Assembly: GCF_003334255.1 (NCBI RefSeq)
Contig: NZ_QOWU01000029.1
From: Escherichia coli
GTDB taxonomy: Bacteria; Pseudomonadota; Gammaproteobacteria; Enterobacterales; Enterobacteriaceae
Reading direction: 5' to 3' (one strand)
Length of the DNA stretch: 59,744 nt
A model generated the notes under the pieces. That model was not told the DNA's origin, made no database searches, and was given only the letters and a program-made list of their open reading frames with translations. This document shows positions 11,493 through 32,290 of this stretch, in pieces. A program made the position numbers and the translations under genes. Position 1 is the stretch's first letter; every line of letters starts with the position of its first letter.

Positions 11493-12450
11493 AGCACTAC
11501 TGAACGCGGGACGTCAGACGTTAATGCTGGAGTTGCAGGAAGCAAGCCGTTTACCGGAACGTCTGGGCGATGATTTTGTTCGCGCCGCCAATATCATCCT
11601 GCACTGTGAAGGCAAAGTGGTGGTTTCGGGAATTGGCAAATCGGGCCACATTGGTAAGAAAATCGCCGCAACGCTTGCCAGTACCGGCACTCCGGCTTTT
11701 TTTGTCCATCCGGCAGAAGCGCTGCACGGCGATCTGGGGATGATCGAAAGCCGCGATGTGATGCTGTTTATCTCTTACTCCGGTGGCGCGAAGGAACTGG
11801 ATCTGATTATTCCGCGTCTGGAAGATAAATCTATCGCGCTGCTGGCGATGACCGGCAAACCGACGTCACCGCTGGGCCTGGCGGCAAAAGCGGTGCTGGA
11901 TATCTCCGTAGAACGCGAAGCCTGCCCGATGCACCTTGCGCCGACCTCCAGCACCGTCAATACCCTGATGATGGGTGACGCGCTGGCGATGGCGGTCATG
12001 CAGGCGCGCGGATTTAATGAAGAAGATTTTGCCCGCTCCCACCCAGCCGGGGCACTGGGCGCTCGCTTGCTGAATAAAGTGCATCATCTGATGCGCCGTG
12101 ACGATGCCATCCCACAGGTGGCGTTAACCGCCAGCGTGATGGATGCGATGCTGGAACTCAGCCGCACCGGTCTGGGGCTGGTGGCGGTATGTGACGCTCA
12201 ACAACAGGTACAAGGCGTCTTTACCGACGGCGATTTACGTCGCTGGCTGGTTGGCGGCGGCGCACTCACCACGCCAGTCAATGAAGCGATGACGGTCGGC
12301 GGCACCACGTTGCAATCGCAAAGTCGCGCCATCGACGCCAAAGAGATCCTGATGAAGCGCAAAATCACTGCCGCACCGGTGGTGGATGAAAACGGCAAAC
12401 TCACCGGCGCAATAAACCTGCAGGATTTCTATCAGGCCGGGATTATTTAA
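11485..12450 (+). CDS. gutQ: D-arabinose 5-phosphate isomerase GutQ (SIS and CBS domains), 321 aa
   Basis: ORF track; SIS-domain motif and tandem CBS domains; start overlaps the srlR stop. Confidence 0.93.
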
Positions 12451-13961
12451 TCCTTCAATCCCAGACGTTTCGCCAGCCGATGCAGGTTGGCGACGTCGGT
12501 TTCCAGCATCCGCGCGCAGGCAGCCCAGTTGTGATGATTTTGTGCCAGTGCCTGACGAATAGTTTCACGCTGGAACGCTTCTGTCGCTTCACGCAGGTTT
12601 TGCTTAACAACGGGCACCGCCGCCACTTCTGGCGTCGGCAACGTCACCTCAGGAAAAGCAAAATGTTGCGCCTCAAGAATCACTTCATCGCCGCTGCGGG
12701 TGGCTCTCGCCAGAACTACCGCCCGATGAATAGCATGTTCCAGTTCGCGCACGTTTCCCGGAAAACTGTAGTGTTGCAGTAAATTTCGCGCTCCGGCACT
12801 TAATACCACGCGGGAGAGCCCCTGCCGCAAACGACACTGCTCGCAGAAATACCCCGCCAGCAGAATGACATCATCGCCCCGCTCACGCAGCGGCGGCACC
12901 GAAAGTGGAAACACGCTCAGGCGATGAAACAAATCGGCGCGGAATCGCCCTGCCAGCACCTCTTCGCGTAAATCGCGGTTAGTCGCCGCCAGCACGCGCA
13001 CATCGACCCGCAAACAACGGTCATCGCCAACGCGCTGAATATCGCCATACTGCAACACCCTCAGCAGCTTGGCCTGCAATGCCAACGACAACTCGCCGAT
13101 CTCATCCAGAAACAGCGTGCCGTTATCCGCCATTTCAAACTTCCCGCTGCGATTACTGATAGCGCCAGTAAACGCTCCTTTCACATGCCCGAACAACTCA
13201 CTTTCCGCCACACTTTCCGGCAGTGCAGCACAGTTGAGATAGACCAGCGGATTCACCGCCCGTGGCGAGGCTTCATGAATCGCTTTCGCCACCAGCTCCT
13301 TACCGGTTCCAGTCTCACCGCTGATCAGGACGTTGAGATCGGACGCCGCCACAATCTCAATCTCTTTTTTCAGTTGCGTCATGCCAGGGGACAAGCCAAT
13401 CATCTGCGTCTGTTTCACCGCTTCAAACGGCGTGGCATCGCCTGGCAGCATATTCTGGCTTTCCAGTTGTTCAATCAGCAACGCATTGCTTAACGCTCCC
13501 GCCGCCAGCGCAGCAATCAGCCGTAGCTCTTCGTCGCTGAAAACATCGAACTGATCGGGCTGCATCCCGTCGAGCGTCAGTGCGCCGATCAGGTTTTGCC
13601 CGGCAAACAATGGCAGACCAACGCAGGCGTGAACCTTCAGACTCTCCTGCCCAGGAATCAAACCGTCATAGGGATCGGGCAATTCGCTGTCTGCGGGAAA
13701 GCGCACCACATCCCCGGCGCGGGCAATCGCTTCCAGCCGTGGATGCCCTTCCAGCGCAAAGCGTCTACCGAGTACATCCTTTGCCAGACCGTCGATGGCA
13801 AGCGGAATAAACTGCCGCGAATCGTAACGTAGCAACGCAGACGCATCGCACTCCAGCACCTGACGTAGCGTGGTGATCAGGCGCTGAAAACGATCCTGGT
13901 GACCAATCCCACGCTGCAATTCGATGGCGATATTCGCCAGCACATCAACGGAAAAACTCAT
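12447..13961 (-). CDS. norR: Sigma54-dependent NO-responsive regulator NorR, about 504 aa; the track ORF is extended to 14036
   Basis: ORF track; GAF domain, AAA+ sigma54-activator core ([14 protein letters not shown]) and C-terminal HTH. Confidence 0.95.
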
Positions 13962-13973
13962 CTTTGCCTCACT

Positions 13974-14029
13974 GTCAATTTGACTATAGATATTGTCATA
14001 TCGACCATTTGATTGATAGTCATTTTGAC
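13974..14029. promoter_or_regulatory. Three NorR enhancer sites (GT-N7-AC) in the norR-norV intergenic region
   Basis: gtcaatttgac (13974-13984), gtcatatcgac (13995-14005) and gtcattttgac (14019-14029) seen directly. Confidence 0.75.
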
Positions 14030-14084
14030 TACTCATTAATGGGCATAATTTTATTTATAGAGTAAAAACAATCAGATAAAAAAC

Positions 14085-14100
14085 TGGCACGCAATCTGCA
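14085..14100 (+). promoter_or_regulatory. Sigma54 (-24/-12) promoter for norVW
   Basis: TGGCACgcaatcTGCA about 50 bp upstream of the norV start codon. Confidence 0.85.
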
Positions 14101-14147
14101 ATTAGCAAGACATCTTTTTAGAACACGCTGAATAAATTGAGGTTGCT

Positions 14148-15587
14148 ATGTCTATTGTGGTGAAAAATAACATTCATTGGGTTGGTCAACGTGACTGGGA
14201 AGTGCGTGATTTTCACGGCACGGAATATAAAACGCTGCGCGGCAGCAGCTACAATAGCTACCTCATCCGCGAAGAAAAAAACGTGCTGATCGACACCGTC
14301 GACCATAAATTCAGCCGCGAATTTGTGCAGAACCTGCGTAATGAAATCGATCTGGCGGATATCGATTACATCGTGATTAACCATGCAGAAGAGGACCACG
14401 CTGGGGCGCTGACCGAACTGATGGCACAAATTCCCGATACGCCGATCTACTGTACTGCCAACGCTATCGACTCGATAAATGGTCATCACCATCATCCGGA
14501 GTGGAATTTTAATGTGGTGAAAACTGGCGACACGCTGGATATCGGCAACGGCAAACAGCTCATTTTTGTCGAAACACCAATGCTGCACTGGCCGGACAGC
14601 ATGATGACTTACCTGACAGGCGACGCGGTGCTGTTCAGTAACGATGCTTTCGGTCAGCACTACTGTGACGAGCATCTGTTCAACGATGAAGTGGATCAGA
14701 CGGAGCTTTTCGAGCAGTGCCAGCGTTACTACGCCAATATCCTGACGCCGTTCAGCCGCCTGGTAACGCCGAAAATTACCGAGATCCTGGGCTTTAACTT
14801 ACCAGTCGATATGATAGCGACCTCCCACGGCGTGGTCTGGCGCGATAACCCGACGCAAATTGTCGAGCTGTACCTGAAATGGGCGGCTGATTATCAGGAA
14901 GACAGAATCACCATTTTCTACGACACCATGTCGAATAACACCCGCATGATGGCTGACGCTATCGCCCAGGGGATTGCGGAAACCGACCCACGCGTGGCGG
15001 TGAAAATTTTCAACGTCGCCCGAAGCGATAAAAACGAAATCCTGACCAATGTCTTCCGCTCAAAAGGCGTGCTGGTCGGCACTTCGACGATGAATAACGT
15101 GATGATGCCGAAAATCGCCGGGCTGGTGGAGGAGATGACTGGTTTACGCTTCCGTAACAAACGCGCCAGTGCTTTCGGCTCTCACGGCTGGAGCGGCGGT
15201 GCGGTGGATCGTCTTTCCACGCGCCTGCAGGATGCGGGTTTCGAAATGTCGCTCAGCCTGAAAGCCAAATGGCGACCAGACCAGGACGCTCTGGAGTTAT
15301 GCCGTGAACACGGTCGCGAAATCGCCCGTCAGTGGGCGCTCGCGCCGCTGCCGCAGAGCACGGTGAATACGGTAGTTAAAGAAGAAACCTCTGCCGCCAC
15401 GACGGCTGACCTCGGCCCACGGATGCAGTGCAGCGTCTGCCGGTGGATTTACGATCCGGCAAAAGGCGAGCCAATGCAGGACGTTGCACCAGGAACGCCG
15501 TGGAGTGAAGTCCCGGATAACTTCCTGTGCCCGGAATGCTCCCTCGGCAAAGACGTCTTTGACGAACTGGCATCGGAGGCAAAATGA
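14148..15587 (+). CDS. norV: Anaerobic nitric oxide reductase flavorubredoxin, 479 aa
   Basis: ORF track; metallo-beta-lactamase-like, flavodoxin and C-terminal rubredoxin (CxxC...CxxC) domains. Confidence 0.96.
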
Positions 15588-16717
15588 GCAACGGCATTGT
15601 GATCATTGGTTCGGGCTTCGCCGCCCGACAACTGGTGAAAAATATTCGCAAACAGGACGCCACTATTCCATTAACCTTGATTGCCGCCGACAGCATAGAT
15701 GAGTACAACAAACCTGACCTCAGCCATGTTATCAGTCAGGGGCAACGTGCCGACGACCTTACCCGCCAGACGGCGGGTGAATTTGCCGAGCAGTTTAATC
15801 TGCGCCTGTTTCCGCACACCTGGGTGACGGATATCGATGCCGAAGCCCATGTGGTGAAAAGCCAGAATAATCAGTGGCAATACGACAAGTTAGTGCTGGC
15901 AACCGGTGCCAGCGCCTTTGTCCCGCCTGTGCCTGGGCGTGAGTTAATGCTGACGTTAAATAGTCAGCAAGAGTATCGCGCCTGTGAAACGCAACTGCGG
16001 GATGCCCGACGCGTGTTGATTGTTGGCGGTGGTTTGATTGGTAGCGAACTGGCGATGGATTTTTGTCGTGCAGGCAAAGCGGTCACGCTAATCGACAACG
16101 CTGCCAGTATTCTGGCGTCGTTAATGCCACCGGAAGTAAGCAGCCGCTTGCAGCATCGGTTGACGGAGATGGGTGTTCATCTGCTGTTGAAATCTCAGTT
16201 GCAGGGGCTGGAAAAAACGGATTCTGGCATTCTGGCAACGCTGGACCGCCAGCGTAGCATCGAAGTGGATGCGGTAATTGCCGCCACCGGACTGCGCCCG
16301 GAAACCGCCCTGGCACGACGCGCCGGGCTGACGATTAATCGCGGCGTTTGCGTCGATAGTTATCTGCAAACCAGTAATACCGATATTTACGCGCTGGGCG
16401 ATTGCGCGGAAATTAACGGTCAGGTATTGCCGTTCCTCCAGCCGATTCAACTTAGCGCGATGGTGCTGGCAAAAAATCTTCTCGGCAATAACACGCCGCT
16501 GAAACTCCCGGCGATGCTGGTGAAAATCAAAACGCCGGAATTACCGCTGCATCTGGCAGGCGAAACCCAGCGTCAGGATTTACGCTGGCAAATTAATACC
16601 GAACGCCAGGGAATGGTGGCGCGCGGCGTTGACGATGCTGACCAGCTTCGCGCCTTTGTGGTCAGTGAGGATCGGATGAAAGAGGCATTTGGATTGTTGA
16701 AAACATTGCCGATGTAG
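15584..16717 (+). CDS. norW: Flavorubredoxin NADH reductase, 377 aa
   Basis: ORF track; FAD/NAD-binding GxGxxG motifs; start overlaps the norV stop. Confidence 0.95.
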
Positions 16718-31645: not shown

Positions 31646-32107
31646 TCATGCTGCCGGGCTTTGTCCCTTTACCAGTTGGCTTAAATTCACCGGCACATTG
31701 TTTTCAATAGCGGTGTATAAGCTGTCGTAAACGCCAGCGATTTTTTCGAGATAGTGTTCCAGAACCTGTTCGCGATCGCGGATGTTGACCTTGCCATCAA
31801 TCATGCCGTCAATGCTCAGTTGCGCCTGCGCAATCCGCTGTTTGTCTTCGCCATCTTTTGTTTCGACGTAATACTCGATGGTGTGGCTGTTAAAGCCATC
31901 CGCCAGGGTGACGTAAATGCGAAAATGTTCAAAAAGGACGAAACAGAGTTCTTTGTCCGGCGCGCAGCTCATGGCGTGATGCAGGCGCGCTTTCGATAAC
32001 GTGATCCCCTGAACCAGCGAATTGCAGTAGATGTGCCACTGGTCCTGTAGGCGACGATGCCGCTGTGCGATGTAATCGGCTTTCTCGCTTATTTCCCAAA
32101 TAGTCAT
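31646..32107 (-). CDS. hycA: Formate hydrogenlyase regulatory protein HycA, 153 aa
   Basis: ORF track; first gene of the hyc operon, divergent from hypA. Confidence 0.92.
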   Translation of the reverse strand: MTIWEISEKADYIAQRHRRLQDQWHIYCNSLVQGITLSKARLHHAMSCAPDKELCFVLFEHFRIYVTLADGFNSHTIEYYVETKDGEDKQRIAQAQLSIDGMIDGKVNIRDREQVLEHYLEKIAGVYDSLYTAIENNVPVNLSQLVKGQSPAA

Positions 32108-32142
32108 TGTCAGGTTACCCGTTTAACAGAGATGCCAGCTTT

Positions 32143-32159
32143 AAGCATTTTTTGTGCCA
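32143..32159 (-). promoter_or_regulatory. Putative sigma54 (-24/-12) promoter for the hyc operon
   Basis: Minus strand reads tTGGCACaaaaaaTGCtt about 36 bp upstream of hycA. Confidence 0.6.
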
Positions 32160-32216
32160 ACTTTTAATTTATTGTTATTAAAGAGATTTTTAAGCTAAAG
32201 ATGAATTTCGTCGCCG

Positions 32217-32246
32217 TGTCGACGTGTCATTTCGACATCATCGACA
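32217..32246. promoter_or_regulatory. Putative FhlA upstream activating sequence between the hyc and hyp promoters
   Basis: tgtcgacgtgtcatttcgacatcatcgaca contains repeated TGTCG / CGACA inverted elements midway between the two sigma54 promoters. Confidence 0.45.
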
Positions 32247-32273
32247 TTATTCACCGCAGGGATAATCAACACT

Positions 32274-32290
32274 GGCACAATTATTGCTTG
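32274..32290 (+). promoter_or_regulatory. Putative sigma54 (-24/-12) promoter for hypABCDE-fhlA
   Basis: TGGCACaattaTTGCtt about 30 bp upstream of the hypA start. Confidence 0.65.

Follow-up and report, generated by a model that had tools for sequence, protein, structure and literature searches.

The norV promoter, PnorV, is in use as a nitric-oxide (NO) biosensor in synthetic biology. It lies in the spacer between the norR gene and the divergent norVW operon of Escherichia coli, a control region that is already known and was characterised experimentally more than ten years ago. In that work, changing GT-N7-AC to GG-N7-CC in any one of three NorR sites abolished nitrite-induced expression of norV-lacZ (Tucker et al., 2010; PMC2831303). 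Methylation protection by NorR extends from -137 to -84 and is lost solely at the site that has been mutated, and the highest-affinity site reported is site 1 (Tucker et al., 2010). The three sites are all needed for the ATPase activity of NorR and for sigma-54 open complexes at low protein concentration, and open-complex formation at norV depends on sigma-54 (Tucker et al., 2010). On a 266-bp fragment NorR forms hexameric rings, and the NorR-DNA complex is heparin-resistant (Tucker et al., 2010).

Further published observations point to the same spacer. The 2010 paper cites an independent deletion study (Justino, 2005, as cited in Tucker et al., 2010) and the Ralstonia eutropha system (Busch, 2004), and IHF has been reported, with reference to earlier work, to bind between the NorR sites and the start of transcription (Tucker, 2004, as cited). 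In genomic SELEX (gSELEX), NorR was found on the norR/norV spacer only (Shimada et al., 2021), and gSELEX also placed a peak of the RpoN holoenzyme in this spacer. Few sigma-54 enhancers are as well characterised as this one, and here it serves as a positive control, in which a regulatory architecture already validated by experiment was recovered by reading raw sequence.

The norR-norV spacer and its experimentally tested counterpart

The stretch of E. coli DNA analysed here, referred to as the window, is 59,744 nucleotides long. Its 186-bp spacer at 13962-14147 is almost certainly the E. coli norR-norVW regulatory region, consisting of a NorR enhancer, an A/T-rich tract with reported IHF binding and a sigma-54 promoter. 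The features of the locus, in the coordinates of the window, are as follows.

12447-13961, minus strand: norR, 504 aa, NO-sensing enhancer-binding protein with GAF, sigma-54 AAA+ and HTH domains (NCBIfam, Pfam, RefSeq)
13959-13961, minus strand: norR start codon, CAT on the plus strand (A of ATG at 13961)
13967-13970, minus strand: norR Shine-Dalgarno sequence GAGG (CCTC on the plus strand), from the sequence; separated by 5 nt from the ATG and by 3 nt from the distal NorR site
13974-13984: NorR site 3 in the published numbering (the "first" site of the initial annotation), GTCAATTTGAC, centred at about -132 from the norV start
13995-14005: NorR site 2, GTCATATCGAC, centred at about -111
14017-14031: NorR site 1, promoter-proximal, with core GTCATTTTGAC at 14019-14029, centred at about -87
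14030-14084: A/T-rich tract, published IHF-binding region (composition and literature)
14066-14078, plus strand: best match to an IHF core, AAACAATCAGATA, differing from WATCAANNNNTTR at two positions
14085-14100, plus strand: sigma-54 promoter TGGCACGCAATCTGCA, with GG at 14086-14087 and GC at 14098-14099
14111, plus strand: putative norV transcription start with a 37-nt leader, from published footprint numbering
14139-14142, plus strand: norV Shine-Dalgarno sequence GAGG, from the sequence
14148-15587, plus strand: norV, 479 aa, flavorubredoxin NO reductase (NCBIfam NF003954, RefSeq)
15584-16717, plus strand: norW, 377 aa, NADH:flavorubredoxin reductase (NCBIfam NF003437, RefSeq)

The arrangement is that of a norVW-type enhancer and promoter. 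Three tandem GT-N7-AC inverted repeats lie 5' of the promoter, which has its -24 GG and -12 GC 3' of the NorR sites; the adjacent divergent gene, norR, encodes an activator with GAF, AAA+ (sigma-54) and HTH domains; and the operon 3' of the promoter (norV, norW) encodes NO-detoxifying enzymes. The identities of the three proteins rest on NCBIfam equivalogs: NorR matches NF003451 over its full length (822 bits, the cut-off being 476), NorV matches NF003954 (1045 bits against 711) and NorW matches NF003437 (685 bits against 392). In NorR, Pfam recognises a GAF domain (residues 22-155), Sigma54_activat (187-353), an AAA lid and a weak HTH_8 (461-486). RefSeq names the flanking genes norR and norV in E. 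coli, and the neighbourhood is the standard chromosomal context of this species, comprising srl/gut, norRVW, hypF-hydN, asc, hyc and hyp. No RNA family in Rfam matched at 13800-14300, even with E values up to 1; across the whole window, Rfam found two tRNAs only.

The spacer is also identical to the DNA used in the published experiments. The 66-bp "NorR123" oligonucleotide corresponds base for base to 13969-14034, and the 21-mer "NorR1" for site 1, GATAGTCATTTTGACTACTCA, corresponds to 14015-14035 (Tucker et al., 2010; PMC2831303). Each of the three mutagenic primer pairs, in its wild-type form, matches one of the repeats, primer Site3+ matching site 3, and the primers norRpromF and norRpromR map to 13926-13945 and 14170-14191, which gives exactly the published 266-bp fragment. 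Because the experiments were performed on this exact DNA, they support the assignment of both the NorR enhancer sites and the promoter, and nothing was found that contradicts it. Induction of norV by NO in dependence on NorR and RpoN is likewise published for DNA identical to that of the window. The initial annotation, made from the sequence alone, had read the spacer as a NorR enhancer with a norV promoter and had proposed reporter fusions with mutated sites, along with binding of purified NorR, as checks. For norV such tests had been published between 2004 and 2010, the mutant reporters and the footprints of purified NorR on all three sites both appearing in Tucker et al. (2010; PMC2831303), and they bear the reading out.

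Architecture and conservation of the spacer

The initial annotation placed GT-N7-AC motifs at 13974, 13995 and 14019, and the sequence has a motif at each of these positions. Its description of them as evenly spaced holds roughly, but the repeats are set 21 bp and then 24 bp apart, start to start. The published order of the sites is the reverse of the one it used, with site 1 nearest the promoter (14019) and site 3 beside norR (13974). Around the GT-N7-AC core, the full NorR repeat reads wTwGTCA-N3-TGACwA, and site 1 is a perfect 6-3-6 palindrome, TAGTCA-TTT-TGACTA (14017-14031). At the norR end, the gap between the ATG and the first repeat, which had been given as about 13 bp, is close to that figure but measures exactly 12 nt (13962-13973) and includes the norR Shine-Dalgarno sequence.

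The promoter stands at 14085-14100, where the initial annotation had reported TGGCACgcaatcTGCA. The position and the GG-to-GC spacing are correct, but "consensus" overstates the match, as TGGCACGCAATCTGCA differs by one base from TGGCAC-N5-TTGCA. The norV transcription start can be placed at 14111 from the numbering of the published footprint. With +1 at this position, the promoter GC falls at -13/-12, and the footprint limits of -137 and -84 coincide with G13974 and G14027, which are the last Gs at the outer ends of the cores of sites 3 and 1.

The A/T-rich stretch between the enhancer and the promoter had been suggested to suit IHF-assisted looping. At 14030-14084 the sequence is 78% A+T, compared with 47% for the whole window, which corresponds to the 99.9th percentile of 55-bp windows, and the reported IHF binding falls in this region; the core found in E. 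coli, however, is degenerate. A scan for the IHF consensus at one mismatch or fewer found no match in the A/T tract, and AAACAATCAGATA is the sole match there with at most two mismatches. In many genera, the conserved block directly 5' of the -24 element reads AATCAATnnnTTA, which is a perfect IHF core (WATCAANNNNTTR). On this evidence, 14066-14078 may represent the IHF core of the E. coli spacer. The only hits of the one-mismatch scan are three that overlap at 13999-14018, between sites 2 and 1; they are probably fortuitous, since this spacer is poorly conserved across genera.

Conservation was assessed by scanning species-representative genomes for NorV, which gave 80 loci with 89-100% NorV identity, spread over more than 25 genera of enterobacteria. 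The 215 bp 5' of norV from 79 of these loci were aligned together with the window, giving 80 sequences, and three GT-N7-AC sites are found in 79 of the 80. In these 79 loci, sites 3 and 2 are 21 bp apart in 75 and 20 bp apart in 4, sites 2 and 1 are 24 bp apart without exception, and the proximal NorR site starts 64-67 bp ahead of TGGCA in 78. In 54 of the 79, 12 nt lie between the norR start codon and the distal site. Over the 80 loci, conservation is 95% or more in the columns of GTC, GAC and TGGCAC, while the spacers between the sites and most of the A/T tract diverge. Retained as well are the CCTC of the norR Shine-Dalgarno sequence, in most of the 80 aligned loci, and TGAGGTTGC, which precedes the norV ATG. 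The 21/24-bp geometry and the distance from enhancer to promoter are thus essentially invariant across enteric genera, a modest added detail to what was known of the locus.

The -12 element of norV varies among the aligned loci. In 33 of 80 loci, those of Escherichia, Citrobacter, Salmonella and Kluyvera, it reads CTGCA or CTGCT. In 39 of 80, among them Klebsiella, Enterobacter, Raoultella and Kosakonia, the canonical GC is missing and the element reads TTGAT or TTGTA. TGGCAC is invariant throughout. About half of the enteric genera lack the -12 GC, which would seem dispensable in them.

A fourth candidate NorR site, GTCAACGTGAC, lies at 14185-14195 within codons 13-16 of norV and is a perfect GTCA-N3-TGAC. 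It was rejected as a coding coincidence because the T of its GT is a variable wobble base (T in 23 loci, C in 38, A in 13 and G in 7), the palindrome is kept in just 20 of 81 loci, and the published protection is limited to -137 to -84.

Within E. coli, 701 bases around the spacer were found in all 5426 of 5426 complete genomes, with 95-100% identity. The 186-bp spacer alone as query gave the same picture, many chromosomes being 100% identical. A record with the label plasmid holds one copy of the spacer, and three copies are present in at least one E. coli genome.

Isolate AF3 (NZ_OZ547117.1), an E. coli from a blood culture in the UK, is the only one of the 5426 genomes to match the spacer query over less than 80% of its length. 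Compared with the window, its spacer (L082, positions 350-545) has an exact 45-bp deletion corresponding to 13974-14018. The length of the deletion equals the sum of the two spacings (21 + 24 bp); the distal and proximal NorR repeats are fused and one site is left from three. Given the published results with site mutants, AF3 should be unable to induce norVW. Natural loss of two NorR sites exists in at least one clinical isolate.

NorR-box-like sequence is also found elsewhere in the window. The hyc-hyp spacer has clustered GTCG/CGAC repeats at 32200-32255, including GTCATTTCGAC at 32226, which presumably form the upstream activating sequence for FhlA, a sigma-54 activator that has a GAF domain as NorR does. 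The hycA-hypA region has sigma-54-like elements at 32023-32038 (minus strand), 32142-32157 (minus strand) and 32273-32288 (plus strand). One of them, TGGCACAATTATTGCT, is located 5' of hypA, and one of the TGGCACAAAAAATGCT type is located 5' of hycA; the third, TGGCACATCTACTGCA, falls within the coding sequence of hycA, about 70 nt in, and is directed downstream.

Alternative readings and the expression of norR

Neither the bare GT-N7-AC motif nor the sigma-54 consensus exceeds chance in the window. GT-N7-AC occurs 183 times against about 183-184 expected, triplets of it in 46 bp or less are seen in 67% of dinucleotide shuffles, and there are 3 matches to the sigma-54 consensus with at most one mismatch against 2.3 expected. 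On these counts, the three motifs and the TGGCAC-N5-TGCA match could be accidents of an A/T-rich spacer, but the extended palindrome and its clustering do exceed chance. GTCA-N3-YGAC is enriched in the window (9 occurrences against 1.7 expected), a count reached in none of 1000 shuffles, and three GTC-N5-GAC inside 46 bp were obtained in only 1 of 2000. Furthermore, the site cores and their spacing are invariant in 79 of 80 loci against a background of diverging spacers, and this exact sequence has been subjected to published mutagenesis and footprinting. An origin by chance was already refuted by these experiments together with the conservation, and the probability left to it is negligible. 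The repeats might instead be occupied mainly by another regulator, such as FhlA (a paralogous GAF-type activator), NsrR or FNR. FhlA is among the NorR-related NCBIfam matches, and the related GTCG/CGAC and GTCATTTCGAC repeats of the hyc-hyp spacer also stand beside sigma-54 promoters. Purified NorR, however, footprints exactly these sites and its protection is lost with each mutated site, NorR selects the norR/norV spacer alone in gSELEX, and the published NsrR motif, gATGyAT-N5-ATrCATc, is absent from the spacer by inspection. That a protein other than NorR is the main occupant is thus extremely improbable.

A narrower reading accepts NorR on the sites but makes them an enhancer of norV only, with no effect on norR and no autoregulation in E. 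coli. It is compatible with the lack of a recognisable sigma-70 promoter overlapping the sites and with a literature search in which norR-lacZ data for E. coli were not found, and Tucker et al. (2010; PMC2831303) make no mention of autoregulation. The geometry of the spacer argues against it. The distal site is 12 nt from the norR start, a distance shared by 54 of 79 loci, and 3 nt separate it from the ribosome-binding site, so that a promoter or leader of norR would lie under or beyond the NorR-DNA complex, which is heparin-resistant. The NorR of Vibrio cholerae represses its own promoter in an NO-independent manner. For E. coli itself, Hutchings and colleagues reportedly described a roughly threefold negative autoregulation of norR in 2002. 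Moreover, NorR is said to regulate both norR and norVW (Shimada et al., 2021), and negative autoregulation was predicted for NorR2 (Rodionov et al., 2005). On autoregulation of norR in E. coli, the literature found consisted only of indirect statements and the V. cholerae result. Taken together, an enhancer devoted to norV only is improbable.

Autoregulation of norR in E. coli is plausible from the geometry of the spacer. Placed beside the norR start, the NorR array would most likely exert negative autoregulation of norR independently of NO. Because a convincing sigma-70 promoter for norR was not found, the mechanism, whether occlusion or roadblock, is one that we infer. A promoter scan gave a candidate on the plus strand only, and a relaxed scan of the minus strand gave weak norR candidates, TATAGT at 13988-13983 and TAAAAT at 14053-14048, the best scoring 8/12 and none having a good -35 hexamer. 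By eye, the alignment has nothing conserved at the position of TATAGT beyond the AC of the NorR site, and the region of TAAAAT is poorly conserved.

In most genera the distal site keeps a fixed distance of 12 nt from the norR start, and a conserved sigma-70 promoter is not seen; transcription of norR may therefore begin within the NorR/IHF complex or pass through it. A candidate start would be TATAGT (13988-13983), borrowing the invariant AC of the site. In that case, how far NorR occupies its own enhancer scaffold would determine its copy number, through occlusion or roadblock and independently of NO, and the three-to-one collapse of 45 bp in AF3 suggests that the repeat array may be prone to recombination. 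This combined proposal is tentative, and we consider it less probable than its failure. If it is true, recombination within the repeat array would be a natural off-switch for norVW.

For DNA of exactly this sequence, the literature shows how norVW is induced. Three NorR dimers bind the three inverted repeats, a scaffold for assembly of the hexameric AAA+ ring of NorR, which waits at the promoter. In the model of Tucker et al. (2010), assembly of the hexamer is driven by DNA binding, possibly with wrapping of the DNA. IHF is reported to occupy the A/T-rich tract, and a bend that carries the ring to the promoter is a suggestion of the authors. Sigma-54 RNA polymerase is held in a closed complex on TGGCAC-N5-CTGCA. 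Binding of NO at the iron centre of the GAF domain lifts repression of the ATPase, whereupon ATP hydrolysis opens the promoter and norVW is transcribed.

Comparison with related enhancers

The closest described system is norR-norVW of E. coli K-12, which is the same locus (Hutchings, 2002; Gardner, 2003; Tucker, 2004, 2010; Justino, 2005). No functional difference from it was detected, and the numbering of the sites alone differs. The NorR-norA/norB system of Ralstonia eutropha likewise combines NorR with three essential tandem GT-N7-AC boxes and a sigma-54 promoter (Pohlmann, 2000; Busch, 2004). It differs in its target, which is a haem b3-iron NO reductase instead of a flavorubredoxin, and its NorR is only about 40% identical.

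In Vibrio cholerae, NorR boxes lie 5' of the sigma-54 promoters of the NO-detoxification genes hmpA and nnrS, and repression of the norR promoter without NO is a further likeness to the arrangement favoured here. The targets, however, are a flavohaemoglobin and NnrS. The Vibrionales also differ in the numbers of sites and in having a distinct NorR2 motif, GATGT-N7-ACATC (Rodionov et al., 2005).

Beyond the NorR family, the three-box hexamer of TyrR and the enhancers of NtrC at glnAp2 are similar in that dimers at tandem sites give rise to hexameric AAA+ species. For NtrC, two enhancers suffice and control is exerted through oligomerisation. In contrast, NorR requires the full set of three sites, and its regulation takes place when it is already assembled on the DNA.
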